Shown here piece by piece: positions 10,004 to 50,193 of a stretch of 64,000 bases of DNA (within the stretch, counting starts at the first letter, position 1; the number at the start of each line of letters is the position of its first letter). This DNA comes from an uncultured bacterium (lineage in GTDB: Bacteria > Patescibacteriota > Gracilibacteria > Absconditabacterales > Absconditicoccaceae): positions 10,110 through 74,109 of the forward strand of contig CAMVNA010000004.1 in NCBI GenBank assembly GCA_947168725.1, given 5' to 3'. The notes under the pieces are model-generated. The model was not told the DNA's origin. It searched no databases and was given only the letters and a program-made list of their open reading frames with translations. The translations under genes and the position numbers were made by a program.

Positions 10004-10501
10004 TTAGATTTCAAGAATTCTTGACGCCAGCTGATAACTTCCCATATCAAACATACCAGTTGAAACGATAAGTTGTGCAACATCCTTAAGCTCTTCTTTT
10101 GCCTCACCAACAGAAACATAATTTTTTTCTCCTGAAACAGTAGCATCAAATCTTGCCTTGAAGAAGTTAAGCTCTTTCATACAAAGAATGTCAAATTCAC
10201 CTACATCGTCTACGTTCAAGAAATCTTTTAAAGAAACAAACGTCTTAAAATTCTCAATGAGCTCATCTGTGGAAATATAATCATCCACGATAATCTCACC
10301 AATCTGCTTTAAAGCAAAGGCTCGCTGACCTGGAGTCGTTGAACACTTATAAAGGGCAACATACATATCCATATCATAGCATACGTAGCCTTCATGATAT
10401 TCTTCGACATAGCCCAGCATAGCATCATAAATGATACTTTTTAAGAACTCACTCTTTGCTGAATTATACTCAGCGACCAGCTTTTTAAAATGATCAGTCA
10501 T
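10004..10501 (-). CDS. hypothetical protein (TGA-free, compositionally atypical)
   Basis: A complete 165-aa ORF under both code 11 and code 25. It is visibly more GC-rich than its neighbours, has no TGA codon, and has its own terminator. Confidence 0.7.
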   Translation of the reverse strand: MTDHFKKLVAEYNSAKSEFLKSIIYDAMLGYVEEYHEGYVCYDMDMYVALYKCSTTPGQRAFALKQIGEIIVDDYISTDELIENFKTFVSLKDFLNVDDVGEFDILCMKELNFFKARFDATVSGEKNYVSVGEAKEELKDVAQLIVSTGMFDMGSYQLASRILEI

Positions 10502-31158: not shown

Positions 31159-32381
31159 TGATAAAACTAATTTGAAAAAAAGACAATCAATGGAAAAAAT
31201 TATTTCCTGTTTTTAGCAGACGTCCAGAATTAGTTTATCTAGATAATGCTGCATCGACCCAAAAACCCAAAACTGTAATAGATTGAATTTCAGATTTCTT
31301 AGAAAATGATTATGCAAATATTCATCGCGGATTGTACTCACTATCCGAAAAATCTGAAGAATTATACTACCAGTCAAAATACAAACTTGCTGAATTGATT
31401 AACTGTAAACCAAGTGAAATAATATATTCTTATAATTCCACATATTGCATAAATTTACTTGCACAAGCACTAGTAAATAGTTGAAGACTCTGAAAATGAG
31501 ATAAAGTTTTGCTATGAAATCGAGAACATCATTCAAATATATTACCATGGCAAACTTTGTCCAAAATATTTTGATTTAAAATAGAATTTATAAATGAAGA
31601 TAAAAATTATAATATCGACCGAAAAGACTTTGACAAAAAGTTTGATAAAAAAGTTAAAATCATATCATTATCTCACGTATCAAATGTTACATGACAGATA
31701 ATGGAAATAGAAAAAATTAGAAACAAAATCTGAGAAGATGTATTTTTCATTGTTGATGGATCTCAATCAGTTCCTCATATACCAGTTGATATTGAACAAA
31801 TTCAATGTGATTCTCTAATCATGACTGGACATAAAATGATGGCCTGCACATGACTCTGAATGATGTATCTAAAATACGAATGGATTAAGAATTTGAATCC
31901 TCTCATCCTGTGATGATGAACCGTAAAAGATGTAAGTATTGATGATTTTTCACTACAAAACAATGCAGATAAACGAGAAGCCTGAACCCCTAACATAGTT
32001 TGAGCAGTTAGTCTTTTAAAAGCATTAGAAACCATCGAACAACTATGATGAATAGAGAAAATTCAAGAACATGAAAAAATACTTATTAAACAATTATGCG
32101 AGTGATTCCAAAAAAGAAAAAATGAAATAAATTTGATATGAAGCTACGAAAGTGATAATCGTATATGAACATTTTCGTTCACTGTAAGTAACGAAAAAAA
32201 TTTTAATAAGATATGAGATATTTTTGGCAAAAATAATATATGTATCCGTACATGATGACATTGTGCATATCCTTTACATAAATCACTAAATATTTGATGA
32301 AGTGCTAGGGTTAGTACATACATATACAATACAAAAAAGGATATTGAAAAATTTTTCAATATCCTAGATAAAATTATCTAA
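31158..32381 (+). CDS. sufS: cysteine desulfurase (SufS/Csd, class V aminotransferase)
   Basis: VYLDNAASTQKP, LIMTGHKMMACTGLGMMY (PLP lysine) and IRTGGHCAYPL (catalytic Cys). The ATG overlaps the stop of the preceding gene (TAATG). Confidence 0.8.
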
Positions 32382-32418: not shown

Positions 32419-32447
32419 TTGATTTTTTTGATAATTATATGTATAAT
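32419..32447 (+). promoter_or_regulatory. sigma70-type promoter (TTGATT-N17-TATAAT)
   Basis: The track ATG at 32439 lies inside this promoter, so the ATG at 32484 is preferred as the start. Confidence 0.5.
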
Positions 32448-32483
32448 CATTATAGTTTTTTAATTAATATCAAATTTTTATTA

Positions 32484-33875
32484 ATGGATAATATAGAACT
32501 ACTCAAATTAGAAGCAGATGAAATCAAAAAGTCATTAAATGAATTAAAAAATAATATTTCTATTTCTGAAGATGATAAAAGAAATAAAGCAAATCTACTA
32601 AATAGACGAGCGGAAAAAACAAAACAAAAAATTCAAAAAGAAATAGATTCTTTAACTGACAAAACAGATGAAGAATCGAAGAAGAAAAAAGAAGAAGCTG
32701 AAGCTCTTTTAAATAGTTTTAATGATATCACTGCCTTATATAATTCTATCATAAATCCTTCCTCAAACCCATGAACTCATGATTCAAGAACTCAAAGTTC
32801 TGAGCAAACACCAACTGAAAATAAAAACATATTTACAACAGCTACAGATTGGATAAAGACCCAACGAAACAATATATTAGATACAAAAAAACGAAAAGAA
32901 GAGTGACGAGAGAATTGATTTCGTTTAGCATGATTTGCAGCAACATGAATATGAGCACTTGGTCTAGCATATAAATGAGCAAAAAGCTTACGGAATTGGG
33001 CTTTTTGAAGTGATAAGAAAAAAGAAAAAACAGAATCTAAAAAAAAGAAAAAGAAATTTGGTGACAAATGGTATGGTAAGTTACTAAAATGGGCTGGAAT
33101 CACAACAGCAGCATGAGGATGAATTTATTTTTTAGGTAAGCATTTTAATTTATGGTGAAGTACAGACAATAATACAGACAATAATACAGAAAACCAACCA
33201 GCACAACAACAAGATAAAACTACAGAAAACTCTGAAGAAAAATCGAATGAAACAAAAGACTCAAAAGAGAGTTTTCAACCAACATCAGACAAAATATCAA
33301 ATGAAATGTTTGAGCAACTATTAAAAATGGAAGGAAAACACAAACAAGGCAACAACACCCTCGTCGCAAAAACTGGTAAACAATTTTGAGAAAAATTTCC
33401 TACATGACCTTTTGGTATGGTCTATAAACATATAGACAACGAAGGAAACTTACTTAAAAAAGCTATTCCTTTCAAAGAATGAGAAGAGGTAACAGAAGAA
33501 TGGGGAAGAAAAAATGCAAAAGCCTGCTATGACAAAAGAGCCAAAGAAATAAAGGAGGCATTCGATAATAAATGATACAAGTTATCACAAGATCAACTTG
33601 ATGCTCTTACATCTACATGCGGAGGAACATCTAAATCAAGAAAAAATTGTTTAAATTTTGTCCTGGAAAATTGGAACAATCAAAAAAAAGTCGTTGACTA
33701 CATCAGTACTCATTCCACTACTGCAGCATGAAATCATCAAGTTCAGCCTGGACTAGTTTACCGTAGAAAATTCGAAGCTGACTGGTTCGTATGAAACAAA
33801 ATGACTTTTGCAGAACATAGATCAATGCAAAAAAAATGAAAAAACACAAATCCTAATTACAGTCATTTAGCATAA
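32484..33875 (+). CDS. modular envelope protein 1: coiled-coil N-module + two Gly/Ala-rich TM segments + GH24 (phage/T4-type) lysozyme-like C-domain
   Basis: 463 aa. N-module MDNIELLKLEADEIKKSLNELK...ALYNSIINP. TM segments LAGFAATGIGALGLAY and WAGITTAAGGGIYFLG. The C-domain reads LLKMEGKHKQ...PFGMVYKH...QPGLVYRRKFEADWF, with the GLxxRRxxE..F ending typical of GH24 lysozymes. Confidence 0.7.
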
Positions 33876-33917
33876 ATAAATCAATCCATACAACTAATAT
33901 CAAAATATTTACAATAA

Positions 33918-34613
33918 TTATTTTCAAAAATTCTGACTCTCTAAACTATCATTCCACCGCTCAATAGCTTTTTCAAACTCCTGAACCGTAAACTGAGGAC
34001 AATACAAATCTGTAAAATAAAGCTGAGCATATCAAATTCGCCAAAGCATAAAACCTGACAACCTTTTGGCCAATTTTTGCTTTGTCCTAATAACCAAATC
34101 AACCGTTGGCAATCATCAAAAATCCATATACTTCTCTAAATTTTCTTTATTAATTTTTTCTCAAGAATCGTTTAATTTTTTCATTGCTCTCAAGATTTCA
34201 TCCTGTCATCCATAATTCACAGCTAAAACAAATATTCTCGAACTTTCTAAAAATTTAAATTCAGATTCTTTTTCCTCTAAAAAGTTTACCAAATGAGTCG
34301 GCAAACCAGATTTATCTCATGCTACACGAAAATTAACATGATTTTTACGCATCATATCATACAAATTTTCAGTAATCCTTTTATACAAATTAAAAAGATA
34401 ATTTAATTCCATTTTAGTTCTATTTTTTAAATTTTCCGTACTTAATCACCATAAAGTAAACACTTCAATAGTAGTATTTTCAAAAATATGAACAGCAAGT
34501 TCAATACATCTCTGAAAACCTTCTAAATGTCATTCCAAACTAGCCTTTCATAATTCTTTTGCCCAAGTTCTATTTCCATCAGGAATTAACGCTACATGTT
34601 TTGGATATTGCAT
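33918..34613 (-). CDS. uppS: undecaprenyl diphosphate synthase (isoprenyl transferase)
   Basis: HVALIPDGNRTWAKE...FTLWGLSTENLKNR...AVNYGGQDEI...DLVIRTKQKLAKRLSGFMLW. Confidence 0.9.
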
Positions 34614-34742
34614 TCAAAAAAACTAATATAAAACAAAGAAAATATATCAAATCAGATTATTTATTCAAGAATAGTATTTACACCAATAAATGATTTAATT
34701 CTCTTCCAATAAAAGAACTTTCAAAAAAAGTACCCCCTATTT

Positions 34743-34770
34743 TTGCATTTTTTTTAATTATGGATATAAT
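34743..34770 (+). promoter_or_regulatory. sigma70-type promoter (TTGCAT-N16-TATAAT)
   Basis: ttTTGCATtttttttaattatggaTATAAT lies 33 nt upstream of the ATG at 34803. Confidence 0.55.
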
Positions 34771-34802
34771 TGATTTGAATTGTTTAATTTCATAAAAATG
34801 AT

Positions 34803-36359
34803 ATGAACGATAATATTGACCTCTTAAAAACAGAGGTAGATAAAATCAAAAAATCATTAAATGAACTAAAAGATAATATCACTTTTTCTGAAACAGAAAA
34901 AAAAGACCAAGCTGAAATTCTAAACAAACAAGCAGAAGTAACAAAACAAAAAATTCAGAAAGAAATAGATTTTTTAGCGAACAAAACGGATGAAGAATCA
35001 AAAAGAAAAAAGGAAGAAGCTGAAGCTCTTTTAATTAGTTGTAATGATATCACCGCCCTATATAATTCTATCATAAATCCTTCTACAAGCTCAACAACTC
35101 AAAGTCCCAGTCAATCACCCACTGAGAGCACAAACATATTTACAAAAGCAAAAGATTGGATAAAAAACCAACGAAACAGCATCCTAGACAGGGGAAAGTG
35201 GAAAACAGAATGATGAAAAAATTTATTACGTGCAGCATGAGGTGCAACTTCACTTGTTCTGTTATATAAATGAGCTAAGAAATTATGGAATTGGGCATTT
35301 TGAGACAATGAGAAAGAAGATAACAACGAAAATTACGAAAGTAAAGAAAACACGAGTGAAAACGATGAAGAAAAAACAGAAGTAAGAACAAATGAAGAAA
35401 CAAATGAAGAAGAAAATAACAATAATGACAATTATGCGGAAACAACTGAAGGCAATACTAAAGAAGAAAAGAAAGAAAGCATCTGGAGTAAACTGTGGTG
35501 AAAAGCTTTAGCTTGGTTATGAATTGCACCTGCTGCTTGAACCGCTGCTGCCGCCTGAGCTGCTACCGCCTGAGCTACTGATAAAGAATCAGATTCATGA
35601 ACAAGCGAAGATGTGGGAAAAGATGAAAGTACATCTAATGAACCTGATAAAGAAAATAGTTCTGATCCTTCTACTAATACAAATGAACCTGAAAATAGTC
35701 CCGATAAAAAAGAATCCAACGAGAACACCACAAAAAAAGATACAAAAAATTCAACTAATTCTAATGAATCTAAAGAAGTAGATAAAGGAAAAAATACTTA
35801 TACTAATCCCATAAGTGGATTAACTTATAAACGTATTGATCAAGTTACAGACCCAGCAGGAAAATTGAGATACTCATGAAAAAGAAGTGGTAAAACTGTA
35901 GCCAATATTTGATGTTTACTAGCTTCTGGATGTACTGTAACCTCTGCTCTCTGCCCAGAAGTAACCTTAACAGATTGTTTTAATAATGTTAGACATTGGA
36001 CCGCCGATAAAGCTGTTGCAAAAATGTCGAACAATAAATGGAAATCGGAAGCTCTTTTATCATGAGAACATGGAAACAGAACAAAGACACAAGAACAAAA
36101 AGCAAAAGAAAAAATAATAGAAAACTTAAAAAAATGATATCCTGCTGTCATCGGTGCCAGACATTCAGGTATTGATGGAATAAATAACAGTATAGTATCA
36201 CAACATTACCGTGCTATTTTAGGTATAAGAACTGAAAATGGGAAGAATGAATTCTTCGTTTGAAATACTTATAAAAATGGATCATGAGGATGGATGGATG
36301 AAGATAAAATATTTAAAAACATGATACACGCTTCTATATTTACTCCAAATCAAGCATAA
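34803..36359 (+). CDS. modular envelope protein 2: same N-module + Gly/Ala-rich TM segments + acidic/Ser-Asn linker + C39-like (papain-fold) Cys peptidase C-domain
   Basis: 518 aa. The N-module is about 75-90 percent identical at DNA level to gene 32484. TM segments GGATSLVLLY and ALAWLGIAPAAGTAAAAGAATAGA. The C-domain has SGCTVTSALC (candidate Cys nucleophile) and SQHYRAILGIR (candidate His). Confidence 0.7.
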
Positions 36360-36394
36360 TAAATAATTTATTTTAATTTTTAATAAAAAATATT

Positions 36395-37786
36395 ATGACA
36401 AAAATCGAACAATTGGAAAGTAAGACATCTCAAATCAAAGATGATTTGAACAAATTAAAAAACGATGTTAATCTTTCAGAAGAACAAAAGAGAGAAAAGG
36501 CTCAAGAAATCTTTACTGGTGCAAAAGATATTGAACTGAAAATTAACGAACTGGAATCTCAAACATGAGAAGGATCACAAAGAGACACAGACAGAGCAAA
36601 ATTACTACTAAAAAATTTTGAAGAAGTAAAGACATTATATAACGATATAATGTGAGAAGAAACTAGGAATCAAAATCTAAATCAAAACAATACAAATCAA
36701 ATAGAGGATAAAGATCAAACAACGAATACTCCAACTTCTGAAGTTCAGGATGAAGACAAATCAATTTTATGAACAATTGGAAACTGGTTCTGAAGTGCAA
36801 AAGAATGGATATGAAACCAATGGTCAGATATATGGAATACAGATAAACGAAAAGAAGATTGACTGAAGAATTGATTACGTACAGCATGATTTTTATGAGC
36901 AGCTGGTTTTATATATGAATGAGCGAAAAGTCTGTGGAATTGGGCTTTTTGAGATGACGAGGAAGAACATGAAGAAAAAACAGAATCTAAAAAAAAGAAA
37001 TCTGGTGATAAACGGTATAGTAAATTGTTAAAATGGGCTGGAATCACAACAGCAGCATGAGGATGAATTTATTTTCTAGGTAAACATTTTAACTTATGGT
37101 GAAATGACACATCTATCGAATCACAAAAACCAGAATCTTCGACAGAAACCCAGATTGAACCTACTTCAGAGAATAAAAATAATAACCAGGAAGAAAAGCC
37201 ACAAACTGATAAAACATCAGAAAAACCAACCACATGAGAGCAAAAGACTGCAGAACAAAAGAATAATAATCAAAAAGAAAACTTACAAGTCAGTAATTCA
37301 TGATATACAACTTGAGAAGACTTAACTAAAAAACAACAAAACATTATGGGACAAAAGCTTAACAAAATAAATTCTCCAATTACAGTAAAAATGGTACAGG
37401 ATTCTTGTAGTACTCATAATGTACCAGTTGAATACTTATTAGGTTTTATGCAAAATGATAGCAGTTTATGAACAAAATGAAAATGAGCAAAAACCCATAA
37501 TCCATGAAATGTATGAAACACCGATAGTTGAGGTACCAAAGATTTTTGAACACGAGAAAAATGAGTGGATGCTTGTGCAGAAAATCTAGAGAAACGTATC
37601 GTCGCCTACTCCAAAGCAAAAAAAGAACATAATTGAAAGTGATTTAATGACTTCCCTACTCCTAAAGAATTAGCCACATGAAAAAGCGAGGGATGAACCA
37701 AATTTTTTGGAGTTTACATGACAAGTAAAACTTGACCAACTAATGTTACAAAAATAATAAATTCTCGAGCTGACTCTTTATCATAA
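36395..37786 (+). CDS. modular envelope protein 3: divergent coiled-coil N-module + the same TM2 block as protein 1 + lysozyme-superfamily-like C-domain
   Basis: 463 aa. LKWAGITTAAGGGIYFLGKHFNLWG is encoded by a block about 94 percent identical to 33081-33159. The C-domain reads VPVEYLLGFMQNDSSLG...HNPGNVGNTD...ACAENLEKRI (SLT/glucosaminidase-like motif order). It is a paralogue of 42072..42890. Confidence 0.65.
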
Positions 37787-37850
37787 ATTGAATCATTATT
37801 TATTTTATTCAATAATGATTTCTATTATCAAAATAAAAAAACCTAAAAAT

Positions 37851-37879
37851 TTGACAAAATTTATTCAAAATGAATATAA
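37851..37879 (+). promoter_or_regulatory. consensus promoter AAAAATTTGACAAA-N17-TATAAT
   Basis: TTGACA at 37851-37856 and TATAAT at 37874-37879. Confidence 0.6.
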
Positions 37880-37917
37880 TAAAACTATAATATTTTATCA
37901 TATTAACCACATTAACA

Positions 37918-38601
37918 TATGATTAAGACAAACACCTCTAATACTATAGAAAATCCAGAAACTCCTTCTTCAAACTTTTCTCATGAATTGAGGACTTTAT
38001 GAGACGAAATAAGTAAAATCAATAATTTAGATAAATGGTATATCCAAAACAATAGAAAAGAAAAATAAACCAGAAAAGACTCACACAAATCCCAAAAGTG
38101 ATCTAACTTATAATCAATATGATCAAGATGACCCTCGTTGGAAAGACATCAATCTTATAGAGAGGTACTACAATAGGAAAGATTGGATGAACTGTAACAG
38201 CAATTGCTTGCATCGCTTCACCAGCTAACCCTTTAATAACTCCTAAGGATACTGCGGAATATCGTTGACGATTCCCTGATCGTGCCATCCCCAAAATAAC
38301 AAATGATAAAATAAAATCAGATCGCTTAACAATAGATGATAACACAAACAATAGAATAAAAAAATATTTAGAGAAATGATACCCTGCAATTATAATGGTA
38401 AAATGTAGAATGGGCTGAGGACAAAACAAACTAATTAGATGACAACAATATTTAGCAATTGTCGATTATAGAAACAACAATGGGAAAGAAGAAGTTTTTA
38501 TAGCGAACACAGATAATGGTAAATGAGGAGGATGGATGCCTCTAGATAAAGCTTTTGTTAGTATAAAGGAAGCTACATTGTTTACTCCCACAGGAAAGTA
38601 A
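37918..38601 (+). pseudogene. decayed paralogue of the C39-like modular protein (multiple frameshifts or stops, catalytic Cys codon changed)
   Basis: Homology to the family is spread over three frames. 37949-38068 reads HELRTLGDEISKINNLDKW. 38067-38228 reads THTNPKSDLTYNQYDQDDPRWKD. 38161-38601 reads RGTTIGKIGGTVTAIAC...KGYPAIIMV...QQYLAIVDYRNNNGKEEVFIANTDNGKGGGWMPLDKAF. The only ATG ORF (37918) stops at 38014. The TM and linker modules are missing. Confidence 0.6.
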
Positions 38602-40766: not shown

Positions 40767-42026
40767 ATGTCCAAAGATACATACAAATGAGAGGGAAAAA
40801 AAGAAGTAACAGAACACCGTAAAACCGAGTGACGTTCAACTGAAGTCGAAAAAAAAGAATATAAAGAGAACAAAAAGCAAAAGAAAGAATCATCAGAACA
40901 AGAAGTAAATAAATCAAAACAGCAACTTACAGGTTTAGAAAAATGGTTAAAAGAATATAAAAAAATAGAAAAAAGGAAAAAAGAATTAGAAGAAGAAATA
41001 TTAATATATTTTAAGAAAAAATGAAATAATATTAAAAATGAAGTAAAAAAGGATACAGAAACAGAAAATAAAGTAAAAAAGGAAAACGAAGAAGAACCAA
41101 AGAAAAAACATAGAAAATGGAGAGAAAAATACAAAAAAGCGTTAAAAGAAAAAGGAATATTATTAACAAACAAAGAGCGAGAAAATATAATTAAAAAACA
41201 TGATAAAAAAGAATTTAAACATTTTTATAAAGACTTAAAAAAAGCAATAAAAAAAGATGAAATAGATAAATTTTTAAAAAAATGGAAAAATAAAGGTTTT
41301 GATGGTTTATTAGAACAATTTTCAAAAGAAGACAAAAAAGAAAAGAAAAAAGAAAAGAAGGAGAAAAAAAGCTCACATAAGCATAGAAAACATTCGAATA
41401 AATCAACAGATAACTCTTCAAGTTCAAGTGGATGATCTTCTTCTGAATCAACAGACAACTCTCCAAGTTCAAGTGGAGGATCTTCCGATTCAACGGACAA
41501 TTCTTCAGAATCAAATAATGAATCCTCTGAAACAAATAATTCCTCAGAATCTGAAAACAACTTAAATGCTTATACAAATGAATATATACCTGAAGAAAAA
41601 GTAAAAGAAGCTCGAGATTATATTGCAAACTGATGAACATTTCATTCCCCTAGTAAATGAACTATTAAGTGGGGTCGAAGTGATTATAAGCATGTTTGTT
41701 CAACTTGATCATTTAATGTATTATGGAAATTAGGATTACCAAAAGTATCCAATTCTACTGAATGTGATTTAAAATGAAAAATATTACCAAAAATGGGGTT
41801 AAAATATATTTGAGAAGTAGATCCAGACAATCCGGAAAAAGATTGATATAAACCACAGAATTGAGACACAGCAGTACGGCCAAGATTCAATGGTACTCAA
41901 CATCAAGCTACATTTATAAATTGACATTGGGTATCAGACACCATACAGAAGAAAATGTCTTGTTATAACGCAAAAAATGAACCAAATGTTAAAATATATC
42001 GCTATACATGAGAACAGACTGCTTAA
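40767..42026 (+). CDS. Lys/Glu-rich coiled-coil protein with Ser-rich linker and papain-fold (NlpC/P60- or CHAP-like) C-domain
   Basis: 419 aa, frame verified. It has about 200 aa of K/E-rich helix, STDNSSSSSGGSS repeats, then YKHVCSTGSFNVLWKLGLP (Cys) ... GTQHQATFINGHWVSD (His). The long minus-strand track ORFs here are shadow ORFs. Confidence 0.6.
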
Positions 42027-42071: not shown

Positions 42072-42890
42072 ATGATAGAAGTCGAGCAAAACAATAATCA
42101 AGAAAAAGAAAGTTATGAAAACACTCTCAAAAAAGTTGAGACAGAGATTGCTGAATTAAATGATGACAATGTAGATAATGACAAGATTGAATTAGACTGA
42201 CTACTCACACAGTGATTTGCGGAATATCTCTGAGCAGAAAAAGCAAAAAAAATCCTTGATTCCATTAGTAATATGGAAGACAAACCTGAATGATTACAAC
42301 AACTTGAAGATTTCCTTAAATCTGCTTCGTTATCTTTGAATCAATGAATAGGTGAAAATGAGAGACAACAAGAAAACCTTATTAAGTGACCTGATAAGTA
42401 TATATATTGATATAATTTAACAGAAAATCATCTAAATAAGATATCAAATACGTTTAAAAAGCTAAACTCTCCATTGGAACCACAAATGATAAAAGATTCT
42501 TGTTTAAATTTTCCTTATCTACCTGCCGAATATCTTTTGTGATTTATGCAAAACGATAGTAGATTATGAACTGCCTGAAAAAGAGCAATAAATAATCATA
42601 ATCCATGAAATGTATGAAATACTGATGACTGAAAAAATAGGTATTTTGAAACACGGGCAGATTGAGTTAATGCTTGCGCAGAAAATTTAAAAAAACGTAT
42701 TGATGCTTATTCTAAAGTAAAAAAAGAACATAATTGAAAATGATTCAACGATTTTCCAACTCCAGAAGAATTAGCAACTTGAAAAGCTAAAGGTTGAACT
42801 AGATTTTTTGGAGTTTATATGACAAATCCTAGTTGACCATCGACTGTTGCGTGAATAGTAAATCATCGAAACAAAAAACTCAGAACATAA
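42072..42890 (+). CDS. short paralogue carrying the lysozyme-superfamily-like C-domain of protein 3
   Basis: 272 aa. LPAEYLLGFMQNDSRLG...HNPGNVGNTDDG...ACAENLKKRIDAYSKVKKEHNGKGFNDFPTPEELATGK, about 78 percent DNA identity to 37420-37780. The N-terminal GLLTQGFAEYLG...LQQLEDFLKS motif is shared with gene 44716. Confidence 0.65.
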
Positions 42891-44715: not shown

Positions 44716-47103
44716 ATGACTTTTGAACAATTTGGTGAATCTACTGCGGCAACTACTCCATTAGTAACAACAAATGGTGAACCAATTACGCCCGATGGTA
44801 ACGCAACTACAACCACAAATACTGGCGAGACACAAACAACAACTGTTGAACAAGGGCCTGATGCTGATTTAAATCAAAGATATGAAACTGTTAGACAAGA
44901 ACTACTTCAAGTCGGTGGAGTTGATACAAGTGACGATAATATCGAAATCGCTGATTGACTTCTAGATTGAAAATTTGCCGAATATTTACTAAAAAACGAA
45001 ACATCTCTGAACGCGCTGAAATGATTTGTTAATACGATAAAAAAAGATTGACTTAAAAACAAAGCTTGAAATGATTTAAAAAAATTAGAAGACTTCCTAA
45101 ACAACATCTGAAATAATGAGAAGATGGAAAAGGATTTCAAAAAATTTATGGATAAATTACAGAAACCAAAAGATTTACATAAAGTTAAAGAAAAAGAACT
45201 TAGTGCTATCACCATGCACCTATCATTGAATCAAAACGATGCAATGCTTGCATATAAAAGTATGAAAGCCATTCTTGACAACCATCAAAACTTTTTTGGT
45301 ACAGGTATGAAATTGGATGATGTAAATGTTTTTCAAGCTGTTTGGAATTCATTAAAGAATAATTACCAAAATAATGAAACATTCATTGAAGCAGAATACC
45401 CTGGATATTCAGCATTATCTGATAGAGCGATCAGTATTCAAGCATTTCTTATGGCAAATAAATGAATAATATCTTGACCATGACTAGAATGGGAATGAGA
45501 TGAGATAACAGTAGCACATCTAGAGAACAAACCTAACTCTATAGTAAGCAGAGAAGCAATTGTTACTAAACTTAACGAACTCAACAACCAAAGAGTCGCT
45601 AAAAATAAAAGTTTAGTAGAAGCTGTGGACATCAACATACCAACTGCAGACTTTACTAAAACAGCAGAATGAGGGTTAAAGTTTAAATGAACTGAATTCT
45701 CAGCAAATGATGTGATGATGTATAGTGATGAAATAAGTGCGGCAGTTAATGGTGGAGATTTTGTAAATGATAAAGAAAAATGGAGAACTATAAATGAATG
45801 TAGAAATTCATTATATGAAAAAATTAAAGCAAAATTATTAGCTGATCCTTCAGTAGCACAAGAAGGTTCAACAAACAACCCTAGTCAAAACACTAATCCT
45901 GAACAAAACACTAACCCTGGTCAGAACACTAATCCCGAACAAAACACTAACCCTGATCAAAACACTAATCCTGAACAAAACACTAATCCTGATCAAAACA
46001 CTAATCCTGATCAAACTAATGAAACATGATGAGAAAATGTTGAACTTGATGCAAGGTTGAATCTTAAGAGTAGTGTAAAAAATAAACTTGTAGAATTATG
46101 AATTTTCGAAAACGCTGAAAGCCATACAGTAAAAGAACCAGCTATGAAATCTTTTATCGATACCATAAAAGATAAACCATGGAGTGAATTACAAGGTCAA
46201 GGACATGTAGACAAGAGAGCATGGATTGCCACAGTACAAATAGCATTAAATTTTATAGGCGTAAAAAATGAGAAAAGTGAATACAAAGTAAAAACAATTG
46301 ACTGAATACGTGGTAAAGAAACAAGGAGGGTCATCAGAGCATTCCAAAAAGATAACGAATTGGGAGTAGATGGTAAACCATGACCAAAAACTCTTACCAA
46401 AATTTTAGAAACACTTGGATGAATCAGAAGTAGTAATGAATCTACAACGAACAAACCAAATGAAAAAGTTTTTGACTATGATAGTGCTACATCATTAGAT
46501 AATACAAAGGTTCAAGAAATTTTGGATGCTCGTAAAAAATATGATGAATCTGATGAATGAAAAAATGATAATAACGTACGTGTGCTCAAATTAAATGGGC
46601 TTACTAGCCTAACAGAAGAAAATGCTACTGCTCTATCTGCATGGGAATGAAATATACAAGTTAATAAACTATTAACAGATGCAGCTGGTGAAAAAGGTGA
46701 ACAAACCATAACAGTATTAAGCAAGCTAGCACCTAAAGGTGGTAAAGCTATTATCGAGACTTCAGATAAGGATACTTTCGATAAATTGAAAGATAAATGA
46801 TTTGAACTCAAGCTAATAGAGACAACTCAACCTGAGACTCCAACTGAGACTCCAACCGCAACTGAGACTTCAACTGAAACTCCAACCGCAACTGGGACTT
46901 CAACCGAGACTCCAACCGCAACAGAGATTTCAACTGAGACTCCAACCGCAACTGAGACTTCAACTGAGACTTCTGTACAGACTACAACTACAGTGGACAA
47001 CAATAACAGTGTAACTGTTTGATGAGATAACAATTGAACCATTATACAAGATAATGACTCCAGTGTCACCAACAATAGCACAGTAGACGACATGGGAGAC
47101 TAA
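44716..47103 (+). CDS. large surface protein with peptidoglycan-binding (PG_binding_1-like) domain and two tandem-repeat linkers
   Basis: 795 aa, joining track ORFs 44716, 45124 and 45712 in one frame. AWIATVQIALNFIGV...IDGIRGKETRRVIRAFQKDNELGVDGKPGPKTLTKIL is a PG_binding_1 pattern. It carries NTNP(E/D/G)Q and TETPTATETS repeats. Confidence 0.7.
45886..46014 (+). repeat. 18-nt coding tandem repeat (about 7 units, QNTNPE/D)
   Basis: Units of caaaacactaatcctgaa with synonymous or near-synonymous variation. Confidence 0.85.
46831..46972 (+). repeat. 30-nt coding tandem repeat (about 4.5 units, TETPTATETS)
   Basis: Units of actgagacttcaactgagactccaaccgca. The minus-strand track ORF 46827..47093 is its shadow. 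Confidence 0.85.
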
Positions 47104-47151: not shown

Positions 47152-50100
47152 ATGTTAATTTACAAAAGAGCTAACTTTGCACCAAATGGATGACCTGAAC
47201 AACAATCTCAGGAACCCACACCTGAAGTAAAAATCCAGGATCTCAAAAGAGAAATCAAGGAATTAAGTGATAATGATGCTAAAAATGATGGATTCGAAAG
47301 TAAGATCATCGTCGACAACCAACTTAATGGCTCATTAAGTACTGAATTATTAAAACCTGAAAATAAAAAAACTCTCAATAACCTAGTAAAAGAGCTTTCT
47401 AAAATCCTTGAGAAAAAAAACTATGACACAAACGGTGCAGATTTATTAAATTTATTAACTTGAGTACAAAAAAAAGCTGAATTTAATAGACTCAATAAAA
47501 TTATGACAAATCCAAAAGAAGCAGGAGGAATAAAACTAGATGATTTATGAAAATTTAATGATCAAGAAATAAAGTTGGTTTGTGATTATATAAAGGATAA
47601 TATTGTATCTCCTGAATGTGCAAACTTACATAAACTGTTTGTTACATATAAATCCATGGAACAAAGCATAACCGACAAAAAAGCAAAAGAAAATTTTCTA
47701 AATATTCAAAAATCACTATTAGATTCTTGATGAAATTCTACTGTTGCAGTTGAAATAGAACTATCTCATAAACAATTAGCTGAAATTTTTACAGATTTAA
47801 GCGTTGAAAAATTTAATTCAATAATAACAGAATATACGAACCTTACTGATTGGAAAGGTACTCCCCTCGAAGGACAGATTGGATTTAAAAATAATTGAAA
47901 AAATTTTACTGAAGGTGAATTTGTTGCATATTTTAATGGAGCTAATGAATCCAGAAAACAAGCTAACGAAGCAATAGCTACTGATTTCCGTCTATGAGAT
48001 ATAACACAAGATACATTGAAAAATTTTAGAGTTAAAGATAATAAATTGCTCTATAACTGACAACCATGTAGAAACGAGGATATCAAGGCAGTTTTTTGAG
48101 AGACAAAAATCAATCCAGCATTAAAAGAATGAATTTTCTTTTGAGATGAAAAAGCAGCTATTGAATCAAAAATCTGTGACAAAATAACAAATGAGATAAA
48201 GGATAAACTTCAGAATTCAGATCAAGAGGTAAATAAAGAAAAATGGACTATGAAACCTGAAAACTTTGACAAAATAAAAAGTACCCTATGAGACAGAATG
48301 TTTATTAATATGGATGCTGAAGATAAGGTAACCTATATTCCTCAAAAAGCCAAAGCTTACCTATCAGAATATAGAAATAAAGAATGGCAAGATATCAAAA
48401 AAGACTTTAACACACCAAACTGAATGGCTTATGTCGCAGCCTTACAAATTTTATTGAATGTTGATCATGACGCAAATATAAACGTAGATGGAATATGGAA
48501 ATATAGTGGACAAACCCAAGAAGCAGTAAGAAAATTCCAAGAAAATTATAATAACAATTTGCCAACAGATTGAGTAAAAATAGAAAAAGTAGATGGACTC
48601 CCATGAAAGATAACATTAGAAGCTCTACTTGATGGTCAATATGGAGATGCCGGACTCGACGGACAATGGAAAGTAAATCCAGATTGAACATGAGAATTTT
48701 TAGACTGAACAGAAATCAAAGAAAAAGATGGTAAAAAGTATATTACAATAGATGGACAAGACTATTATGAATACACAGAAGGAATGGAGGGACCGGGATA
48801 TCGATTTTGAAAGAATGATGATCATGACAGTCGACTTTATGTTTGAAATTTTAAAAATGGGAAATCACAATGAGAATGAACTTGTACTCGAAATAATTGA
48901 GAGAAATATGTATGAAAACGAGAGAAAGATTGTAGAACAGAGTGAACATATACTTGGCCTGCCGGTACTCCCGATAATTTCCGTGAATATGTATGAAAAT
49001 TTGATTATAAAAATGATAAATATGTAATGACTGATTGAACGATGACCTATGAAGATAACGATAAATATAAGTGAGCATTTAATGAAAAAAATGAAAAGCA
49101 GTGAAAGTGAACATATACTTGGGCTAATTGAAATATCCTCAATTGAACTTGGGAGAGGGATCATCTTGAGGGAGAAGGTACAGTTTCATTCCCTAATACT
49201 GACATACCTGATCTAAAAGTAGTTTTAGATGGAGATAAATTAAAAGTAACATCTGACTTACCAGCATTTAAAGATAAATTAATTTATGTCGAAACATGAG
49301 AATTTGTCGATGCTACTAACACAACTCCTGAGGCACCAGAGAAGAATCCTGCCGTCGTTGAATGAATTTGAAAGTTTGAAGGTGATACATTCAAATTTGA
49401 TAATGTAAATGAATTAAATGGAAACAAGTATGTGAATATATGATGAAAAAATTACTATGAATACAGAAATGGTATGAACGGTGACTGATATATGGTAGTC
49501 CCAAAGACAAACGAGCATTCTGCATATGTATTATATTGACATTACGAAAATGGAGTAATCATGAATTGAACTGTACATGATGCAGAGGGAAATAAATATG
49601 AATGAGAATTCAAAGATGGTGAACGTTCTTGAAAATGAAAGGCAACGATGTTTGACTGAACAACTTTGTCATGTGACACGTTTGTAAAGGGTCTTCCTAC
49701 ATGAAAATGTACTATTGAATATTGAAGTTCAGAGGACTGGAAAGATGAACTTGGAAAATGGGAAAAATATGAATGAGAAATACAAAACAGAGTACCTTCT
49801 TGAAAAGATTGAACTATGACTTGGAAAAACTGAGACAAATATACATGAGAATGGAAGGATGGAAGAATGGACTGAGATTGAACTTATACTTTCCAGAACG
49901 GTACAACAATCGAATGAACAATTGTTTGAAAATTTGAAAAAGGAAAGCTTACAACATGAACTCTTACCTTTAAGGATTGACAAACATTCAACTGAGCATT
50001 TAATGAGACTTGGACTCCTGATACAGGAACTTTCAAAAAAGATCAAAATGATCAAGGGGTACATGTAGAATCAGATGAAGTTTGATTAAAGGATGATCAA

Positions 50101-50193
50101 GGTAACTACGTTTATAGACGAGAAGGTCAGATGCCAGCTACAAACCAAGCTTCTTCAAGAAGAAGAGAGTAATAGCTCCAGATCAATTATAAT
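47152..50193 (+). CDS. giant surface protein: PG-binding domain + MORN-repeat array
   Basis: 1013 aa, with the frame checked at six positions. YVAALQILLNVDHDANINVDGIWKYSGQTQEAVRKFQ...VDGLPGKITLEALL is PG_binding_1-like. There are many YxGxxxxGxxxGxG units (e.g. GDKYTGEWKDGRMDGDGTYTFQNG), with most Gly residues encoded by TGA. Confidence 0.7.

Follow-up and report, generated by a model that had tools for sequence, protein, structure and literature searches.

Constant regions joined to different catalytic domains are known from the modular autolysins of Gram-positive bacteria, such as the pneumococcal choline-binding proteins LytA (an amidase), LytB (GH73) and LytC (GH25), and from the Cwp proteins of Clostridioides difficile, in which CWB2 repeats accompany a variable domain, for example the cysteine protease of Cwp84; SLH-anchored enzymes are a further example. 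A second design is represented by PcsB, CwlO, RipC and EnvC, coiled-coil-regulated hydrolases working with FtsEX, which lack a hydrophobic hairpin and reach the outside by means of a signal peptide. Here we characterise a cluster of modular genes, g1, g2 and g3, together with a decayed gene, psi, in a 64,000-nt stretch of DNA (the window; positions 10,110 to 74,109 of contig CAMVNA010000004.1, assembly GCA_947168725.1) from an uncultured bacterium of the family Absconditicoccaceae, phylum Patescibacteriota. We put at about an even chance the reading that g1–g3 are lineage-specific, envelope-associated modular peptidoglycan hydrolases of this Patescibacterium, whose genetic code (code 25) reads TGA as glycine. 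The design of one anchor serving many wall enzymes is known; what is new is a lineage-restricted N-terminal module (N-module) without prior description, no account of it having been found in the literature searched.

All gene models in the window follow code 25. The N-terminal ~190–325 residues of the three proteins are homologous by BLASTP (g1/g2 60% identity, E 1e-56; g1/g3 39%, E 2e-53; g2/g3 32%, E 1e-22), and their C-terminal domains (g1_C, g2_C and g3_C) have no significant match among themselves. The shared N-module is ~240 residues long. In g1–g3 it begins with a ~90-residue helical region rich in Lys, Glu and Leu, followed by a Ser/Thr/Asn linker, an (A/T)K(D/E)WI-x-x-Q box, a first Gly/Ala-rich segment, a charged loop of 33–74 residues and a second Gly/Ala-rich segment, after which a linker of 58–70 residues made up of N, S, E, T, Q and K leads into the C-domain. 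An earlier note on this DNA had listed a helical N-terminal part, a WIKxQRN box, two Gly/Ala-rich segments, a charged loop and a low-complexity linker, and all of these are present in g1–g3, the box in the form WI(K/G)xQ. Its count of four paralogs with one architecture holds for these three by BLASTP but not for the fourth member, at 37918–38601, which has a g2-type C-domain only.

Gene g1 (32484–33875, + strand, 463 residues) joins the N-module (hidden Markov model match, E 3e-79) to a predicted GH24 lysozyme domain. Its coiled coil occupies 32484–32759, the WIK box 32838–32915, hydrophobic segment 1 32916–32981, a Lys-rich loop 32982–33080, hydrophobic segment 2 33081–33143, the linker 33144–33317 and the GH24 domain 33318–33872. 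Because homologs begin with MDNIE, and because a promoter-like site (10 of 12 positions, 32419–32447) overlaps an upstream ATG at 32439, the start at 32484 is favoured over that ATG. Taken alone, g1 has no Pfam match at E <= 1. P0038, a relative with 43% identity, reaches 27.0 bits on PF00959 Phage_lysozyme (gathering cutoff 22.3), and a 13-sequence g1_C profile matches lysozymes and endolysins in the PDB (6et6, E 7e-5; 9kbs, 1.3e-4; 7m5i, 1.2e-3). E5-G6, E25 and T29-G30-P31-x-G33 are invariant in the 13 homologs, and are matched to E11, D20 and T26 of T4 lysozyme by motif only; the alignment to PDB structures does not cover the N-terminal part. The GH24 signature first read in g1 is upheld by the relative above cutoff and by the PDB matches of the family, and g1_C is accordingly annotated here as a predicted GH24 lysozyme.

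The second gene, g2 (34803–36359, + strand, 518 residues), carries a coiled coil (34803–35081), WIK box (35139–35219), hydrophobic segment 1 (35220–35270), long acidic loop (35271–35492), hydrophobic segment 2 (35493–35582), linker (35583–35792) and putative papain-like cysteine peptidase domain (35793–36356). Neither g2 nor psi has a Pfam match at E <= 1, and a g2_C profile finds nothing significant in the PDB. Structure models were built from database proxies translated with code 4, which places Trp at Gly positions; the AlphaFold2 model of a 97%-identical g2_C proxy has a mean predicted local distance difference test score (pLDDT) of 82 and a predicted template modelling score (pTM) of 0.83. 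In a Foldseek search of the PDB this model matched staphopains (8oig, 1cv8 and 1y4h; E 3-6e-4, probability 0.99–1.0), among them staphopain C (8oig, E 2.7e-4, probability 0.99). Other PDB neighbours were the C-terminal domain of BtaeB (9jdd), an effector of a Bacteroides type VI secretion system (T6SS), the pseudomurein endoisopeptidase PeiR (8z4h), Lpg2622, cathepsin B and calpain, with TM-scores to PDB neighbours that are modest (0.33–0.47). Against BFVD the neighbours were papain-like domains of phi29-gp13-type tail hydrolases, of a tape-measure protein (TMq 0.66) and of phage endolysins, and these viral structural neighbours are wall-degrading. Q20, C44, H141 and N161 are invariant in 11 g2_C sequences; in the model, helix 44–53 starts at the Cys and strands 140–151 and 154–161 carry the His and the Asn. 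The fold neighbours, with Gln, Cys, His and Asn placed as the fold requires, identify the modelled g2_C as a predicted cysteine peptidase of clan CA. A C39 assignment, as proposed at first, was rejected: PF03412 and PF13529 gave no profile match, no Pfam or PDB profile matched otherwise, and the nearest structures are C47 staphopains and papain-like domains of phages and T6SS. The GH24 domain of g1 and the papain-like fold of g2 are both hydrolase types, in line with the muralytic character suspected from the start.

The decayed gene psi (37918–38601, + strand) derives from a short-form cysteine peptidase of the g2_C type; it is a frameshifted pseudogene and lacks the N-module. It is 36% identical to g2_C (E 4e-26) and 44% to the C-domain of P0032, has neither coiled coil nor hydrophobic segments, and shows by eye a possible remnant of the WIK box; in this it resembles the short form seen in P0061–P0068, which consists of a WIK-like box, a linker and the peptidase domain. 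In the alignment its catalytic Cys has become Gly (TGA) and its His has become Gln. The gene is also broken in the near-identical loci L004 and L005, and relative to L004 it shows 92.8% identity with 11 gap openings, as against 98.3% identity over the surrounding 17.6 kb, a divergence comparable to the synonymous divergence (dS) of 0.03–0.12 among its neighbours. The loss of Cys and His, the breakage in both relatives, and the divergence and gaps mark psi as a genuine pseudogene and not an assembly error, so that the decay noted earlier is real, while the architecture it was said to share is not. Just upstream of the psi ATG stands a sigma-70 consensus (37851–37880, + strand; TTGACA-18 nt-TATAAT, 12 of 12), identified from the consensus match alone.

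The C-domain of g3 (36395–37786, + strand, 463 residues) is the least clear of the set and is called GH73-like tentatively. Its coiled coil lies at 36395–36655, the box at 36773–36868, hydrophobic segment 1 at 36869–36922, the loop at 36923–37024, hydrophobic segment 2 at 37025–37087, the linker at 37088–37294 and the C-domain at 37295–37783. The gene starts 35 nt downstream of the end of g2, the gap between them contains promoter-like matches of 9 of 12 at best, and g3 is probably co-transcribed with g2. Four of seven g3_C-family members match PF01832 Glucosaminidase below threshold (E 0.0018–0.012), which is the sole recurring family; with the cutoff at 30.2 bits, g3_C itself scores 17.2 and its most distant relative, P0073, 18.2. 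Profile searches of the PDB with the g3_C family returned noise only, and an hhalign comparison of the g3_C profile with a single bona fide GH73 domain (P0033) was uninformative. The AlphaFold2 model of g3_C is all-helical and of low confidence (pLDDT 53, pTM 0.58); it was built from a 5-sequence alignment with code-4 Trp artefacts, which probably contributed to its poor quality. Its top Foldseek match is LytB (4q2w) at a non-significant E of 1.8, and ~10 of the 32 matches listed for this low-confidence model are GH73, GH23 or lytic-transglycosylase structures, with SagB (6u0o), Auto, glucosaminidase B, MltC and g-type lysozymes also on the list. The code-25 members of the family read Q-N-D-S-x-L-G, with Asp at the position of the GH73 catalytic Glu, and P0073, which has no code-4 Trp artefacts, alone reads Q-E-S-S-L-G; Asp might serve as general acid in g3_C. 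The SLT/glucosaminidase-like motif originally seen in g3 is borne out as a GH73 tendency, but one that stays below threshold and has Asp in place of the catalytic Glu, and we regard g3_C as probably GH73-like. A second gene of this type makes the cluster larger than first described: orf272 (42072–42890, + strand, 272 residues), a soluble protein whose C-terminal 176 residues are a g3_C paralog (58.5% identity, E 3e-68; 58% to a gene at the corresponding slot of locus L017). It has no N-module, hydrophobic segment or signal peptide, and no Pfam match at E <= 0.01.

Beyond the window, the combination of a constant N-module with interchangeable C-domains, as had been proposed for the cluster, recurs on a larger scale. 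An N-module profile recovers 155 clusters (50% identity) among 1.84 billion representatives, in proteins of ~250–1,793 residues and always at residues ~1–240. Behind it we count 88 C-tails of at least 120 residues, falling into 13 unrelated classes: an unannotated class of ~430 residues (A430; 26 of 88), an unannotated class of 800–1,545 residues (B800; 19), GH24 lysozymes (19), an unannotated class of ~320 residues (10), papain-like peptidases of the g2_C type (3), tentatively GH73-like tails of the g3_C type (3), Peptidase_M15 (2; E 1e-17 and 9e-24), and single instances of YkuD_2 (1e-18), GH25 (1e-11), a weak SLT (2e-3), a weak CHAP (4e-3), DUF4073 and one unknown. Most of the annotatable tails are predicted to act on peptidoglycan, and the fusions to M15, YkuD_2, GH25, SLT and CHAP indicate that the N-module has repeatedly been paired with peptidoglycan-acting enzymes. 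The same C-domains are also found behind unrelated N-termini. The database homologs (P0001–P0220) are translated with TGA as Trp (code 4), giving for instance NPWNVWNT for NPGNVGNT, and the occurrence of Trp at these TGA/Gly positions indicates a family confined to TGA-recoded lineages. Such Trp residues at Gly positions also defeat back-translation scans and weaken profile and structure predictions for the lineage as a whole. A scan with the TGA-free coiled coil detected at least 3 loci in the genome contigs and at least 13 in the metagenome.

Nothing in Pfam, NCBIfam, PHROGs or the PDB matches the N-module. Single-sequence scans of g1, g2, g3 and psi against Pfam and PHROGs, and of g1–g3 against NCBIfam, yielded no informative match either, and PDB profile searches with g2_C, g3_C and the N-module gave non-significant noise (IscU, a cell-wall-binding repeat, SidH and TRAP-gamma). 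The module also has no relative in the 2.9 million viral contigs of IMG/VR. This last result bears on a derivation from phage lysis genes, in which the Gly/Ala-rich segments would work as signal-arrest-release (SAR) or holin elements, first retaining an endolysin-type domain and later freeing it, whether in programmed lysis or as what is left of a prophage. The segments do resemble SAR domains in composition, GH24, M15, GH25 and CHAP are typical endolysin domains, and g2_C resembles peptidases of phage tails and endolysins. We nevertheless judge this derivation highly improbable: PHROGs and viral contigs are empty of the module, no phage marker was found in the scanned stretch around the cluster, where the neighbourhood is chromosomal and housekeeping in character, the synteny of g1 with housekeeping genes is stable in the relatives, and the hydrophobic segments begin ~145 residues into the protein (range ~140–160) and not at its N-terminus. 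A prophage lysis cassette was rejected on the housekeeping context and the lack of viral relatives, which agrees with the view taken at the outset that this is no simple cassette of that kind.

The two commonest kinds of N-module protein occur in a tandem operon, [N+A430]-[N+B800]-[an open reading frame (ORF) of ~1,450–1,480 residues], with tails of ~430 and ~800–900 residues and the ORF present wherever the contig runs on far enough. The operon is complete at L002 (6979–17400) and present as its first two genes at L011 (6591–11733) and L016 (1301–7153) and as its last two at L009 (9815–17826). The A430 and B800 operon proteins and the ORF that follows bear extra Gly-rich hydrophobic stretches (GxxxGxxxG-like after correction of W to G); neither Pfam nor NCBIfam matches the large-tail representatives, and the operon, whose proteins contain no known domains, is flanked by housekeeping genes. 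One could imagine on this basis that the N-module docks the hydrolases onto A430 and B800 proteins as accessory subunits of an envelope-spanning assembly, where they would open the wall locally in the manner of VirB1, CwlT or PrgK in the type IV secretion systems of Gram-positive bacteria. The recurrence of the operon at the four loci, the additional hydrophobic stretches, and the presence of one N-module on functionally different proteins, as expected of a shared assembly interface, are in its favour, as is the literature on type IV systems in CPR (candidate phyla radiation) bacteria, in which other glycosidases possibly fill the role of VirB1. No known machine component, however, is found near either locus, the hydrolase genes are unlinked to the operon, and with large tails that lack any Pfam or NCBIfam match the "machine" is speculation; we think this reading improbable, if less so than the derivation from phage. 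That the two largest tail classes are large, non-enzymatic-looking and set in a conserved operon does fit an anchoring or assembly module better than a toxin-delivery domain.

Comparison of loci separates g1 from the rest of the cluster. L004 and L005 match the window at 98.3% identity and keep its gene order. In genus-level relatives the flanking proteins share 70–92% identity with their counterparts in the window; L001, L003 and L006 have an N-module+GH24 gene flanked by SufS and uppS, and the shorter contigs L010 and L017 have one next to uppS. The uppS–miaA slot, occupied by g2, g3 and psi in the window, is empty in L006, where miaA follows uppS directly; its occupant in L017 is a 450-residue protein that has an unrelated soluble N-region ahead of a g3_C-type domain; in L003 uppS is followed by a 97-residue coiled-coil remnant and a 334-residue GH24 protein, with no miaA homolog seen, and in L001 by unrelated genes. 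A conserved, non-variable housekeeping set would describe the position of g1, then, but not g2, g3 and psi, which are absent from that slot in L001 and L006 and replaced by other genes in L003 and L017. In L001 (9511–9939), L006 (9504–9932) and L015 (2291–2719) a 142-residue ORF sits between SufS and the g1 ortholog; the window, with the end of SufS at 32381 and the start of g1 at 32484, lacks it.

The paralogs have moreover exchanged sequence. At the DNA level g1 is a mosaic, its coiled-coil part being nearest to g2 (75% nucleotide identity over 570 nt) and its hydrophobic part nearest to g3 (79% over 294 nt, with up to 95% amino acid identity). Between the window and L004, dS is 0 for g1, 0.0065 for g2 and 0.0038 for g3, against 0.03–0.12 for uppS and the flanking genes; the low values suggest recent recombination or allele exchange, or a gene-specific sweep, on counts that are small, and the substitutions in g1–g3 are too few for a selection test based on the ratio of nonsynonymous to synonymous divergence (dN/dS).

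A rival reading is a host-directed arsenal, in which the N-module, by the logic of polymorphic effectors, would target or deliver interchangeable wall-degrading domains to the envelope of a bacterial host or prey cell where the two cells attach, and the slot would be a diversifying effector island. Several observations fit: the 13 tail classes on one N-module, a slot whose content differs between close relatives and includes a pseudogenised copy, the recombination among paralogs, near-zero synonymous differences of g1–g3 between strains beside more divergent flanks, g1 orthologs that diverge much faster than their flanks, the lack of a signal peptide together with related hydrolase genes that have no export signal at all, and g2_C fold neighbours that include a Bacteroides T6SS effector domain and phage tail-associated peptidases. 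Lifestyle fits as well, as cultured Absconditabacteria are epibiotic predators for which secreted peptidoglycan hydrolases have been proposed to degrade the host wall (PMC8080830). Against this, the cluster offers no immunity genes, the gaps of 42, 35 and 131 nt containing no ORF and leaving no space for one, and none were found at the L001, L003, L006 and L017 loci either; no secretion-system marker occurs in the annotated 24.9–52.8 kb or beside the A430/B800 tandem operon; the N-module matches nothing in Pfam, NCBIfam or the PDB that would relate it to LXG or other trafficking domains; g1 keeps its position in all relatives examined; and the commonest N-module proteins, A430 and B800, form a fixed tandem operon that is not polymorphic. 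The earlier note had been right to report neither secretion marker nor immunity gene nearby, and of the polymorphic-toxin logic it invoked, the conserved N-region and variable C-region remain, but immunity gene, known trafficking domain and secretion link do not. We consider a host-directed arsenal the strongest competitor, though on balance somewhat unlikely. A bolder version, which we think unlikely, is that the N-module is the signature of a new, signal-peptide-independent export or delivery system of code-25 Patescibacteria, in which the coiled coil and the Gly-rich, SAR-like segments would enable proteins to exit the epibiont and then act on the host envelope or insert into it. It would, with the same low probability, embrace wall hydrolases of at least 8 enzyme types as well as the glycine-zipper A430/B800 proteins, and would make the slot an effector island for breaching the prey wall.

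Under the favoured reading g1–g3 are envelope-tethered wall hydrolases. The homologies, folds, synteny and mosaicism are observed, and we infer an anchoring role and topology for the N-module, and substrates and a target wall for the enzymes. Besides its helical part, the N-module comprises a conserved, amphipathic WI-x-x-Q box and short Gly/Ala-rich hydrophobic segments, one or two in number and separated by a charged loop. Its hydrophobic part would keep the protein tethered to the cytoplasmic membrane, the coiled coil would serve oligomerisation or docking, and the long disordered linker would give the catalytic domain the reach it needs to arrive at the wall. Glycan strands would be cut by g1 as a GH24 muramidase and by g3 as a tentative GH73-like glycosidase, and the peptide part of murein by g2, possibly a stem-peptide or cross-bridge endopeptidase or an amidase. 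As the conserved core beside uppS, g1 would most likely be an autolysin or remodelling enzyme of the cell's own wall, and g2, g3 and psi lineage-specific additions that may have arisen by duplication, recombination among paralogs and domain swapping in the variable uppS-miaA slot. As targets, the cell's own wall and the wall of a host are both live candidates.

A number of observations weigh against this account. The hydrophobic segments are short and weak, with peak Kyte-Doolittle values of 1.0–1.7 (15-residue window), and the net charge of the loop varies from +10 in g1 through 0 in g3 to -13 in g2. Of two relatives with the same GH24 domain, P0010 carries segment 1 alone and P0018 segment 2 alone, and a fixed two-span hairpin is therefore not the whole story; the membrane hairpin put forward earlier is correspondingly weakened, since some relatives have one segment, the loop charge varies and the hydropathy peaks are low. 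No signal peptide that would account for export of the catalytic domains was found in g1–g3, and the related wall enzymes orf272 and the L017 slot gene have neither hydrophobic segment nor export signal. To these come the Asp at the catalytic position of the code-25 g3_C members with their poor fold model, and the 42–51% identity of g1 orthologs beside flanking housekeeping proteins at 70–92%, which is fast for a housekeeping autolysin.

The genetic code on which these gene models depend is well marked in the window. Table 25 yields 98 ORFs of at least 100 residues and table 11 only 24, and translated with table 11 the region falls into short ORFs. When the TGA codons of SufS are masked as X and aligned to solved cysteine desulfurases, ~13 of 28 fall on Gly of 1t3i, including those of its GPTGIG, GGG and EAGTP motifs, and 0 on Trp; since the TGA positions align with Gly and never with Trp, TGA = Gly is confirmed, and with it, together with the ORF counts, the code 25 claimed beforehand. 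There is no tRNA gene in the 64-kb window, and so none for a tRNA-Gly(UCA). Under this code, long antisense ORFs of 217, 180 and 224 residues (32450–33103, 34784–35326 and 36373–37047, - strand) overlap the N-module-coding parts of g1, g2 and g3, and are probably a by-product of Lys/Glu-rich codon composition.

The gene uppS, for undecaprenyl-diphosphate synthase (33918–34613, - strand), is a housekeeping gene convergent with g1 that marks the locus as conserved. In its translation a conserved Gly of the motif NYGG is encoded by TGA, the identical uppS gene of L004 carries PF01255 Prenyltransf, and identity in relatives is 83–90%; both the domain and the coordinates agree with its reported antisense position between g1 and g2. 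Other neighbours in the window are TruD, TruB, DUF502, an SLH surface protein, SufS, MiaA and PG_binding proteins. Downstream, orf419 (40767–42026, + strand) begins with a region very rich in Lys and Glu, continues with a low-complexity linker of Ser, Asn and Gly, and ends in ~130 residues with a Cys...His pattern, read by inspection as HVCSTGSF...GTQHQATFINGHWVSD. Pfam gives no match, and BLAST relates it neither to the genes of the cluster nor to homologs of these; in comparison with L004 it has 29 nonsynonymous differences and a dN/dS of 0.49. It may be a candidate further wall hydrolase. Two large proteins follow, one with a PG_binding_1 domain (44716–47103, + strand; E 4e-11) and one with PG_binding_1 (E 1e-3) and MORN repeats (E 3e-21; 47152–50172, + strand), and with them the wall and surface theme extends downstream of the cluster. 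With orf272, the SLH protein, uppS and the two PG_binding_1 proteins, the region from 29 to 50 kb is, as annotated, rich in predicted wall and surface genes.

For epibiotic and predatory members of the candidate phyla, both the remodelling of their own wall and the breach of the host wall are poorly understood, and the present family provides a candidate enzyme set. The surface proteome of code-25 organisms is poorly annotated because public translations take TGA as stop or as Trp, and the N-module could be used to search code-25 Patescibacteria for wall-active and surface proteins. Should the module be an export or delivery signal, it would represent a new secretion principle; if it is an anchor only, a familiar design gains one more example.

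Like polymorphic toxins (LXG proteins of type VII secretion, Rhs/PAAR proteins of T6SS, and CdiA), the cluster combines a conserved N-region with swappable C-terminal enzymes, and it likewise has a locus of variable content, paralogs that recombine and C-domain copies that are decayed or orphaned; unlike them, it has no immunity gene, secretion linkage or homology to a trafficking domain, its g1 is a syntenic core gene and the major members of the family are large conserved proteins. With phage tail lysins and tape-measure proteins, and with VirB1-like enzymes of type IV secretion such as TraG, PrgK and CwlT, it shares a coiled coil, Gly-rich stretches and a muralytic domain in one chain, but not a phage or conjugation context, nor presence of the N-module in viral contigs. 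SAR endolysins and pinholins, in which the transmembrane segment lies at the extreme N-terminus and the gene in a phage cassette, differ in both respects, similar in composition as the segments are: here these come at residue ~140–160 and outside any phage context.

Coiled-coil-regulated hydrolases of the PcsB, CwlO, RipC and EnvC kind have the same order of an N-terminal coiled coil and a C-terminal hydrolase domain, with no sequence relationship detected; g1–g3 differ from them in having hydrophobic segments and no signal peptide. S. aureus SagB, a GH73 enzyme with an N-terminal transmembrane segment that forms a complex with SpdC, shares the layout of a membrane-tethered glucosaminidase-type enzyme and is a structural neighbour of g3_C. 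Unlike its single canonical N-terminal span, the arrangement here is a coiled-coil region of ~145 residues followed by weak Gly-rich segments, and g3_C is sub-threshold, with its Asp. From Gram-positive surface autolysins, g1–g3 are set apart by a constant module that is N-terminal, helical and hydrophobic, suited to a membrane as opposed to a wall polymer, without a signal peptide and restricted to code-25 Patescibacteria; no CW_binding_1, CW_binding_2, SLH, LysM or SH3b/SH3 anchor is matched by Pfam in g1–g3 at E <= 1. What they have in common with those autolysins is the plan itself, that is, a constant anchor combined with different catalytic domains, several paralogs per genome and the same kinds of enzyme.

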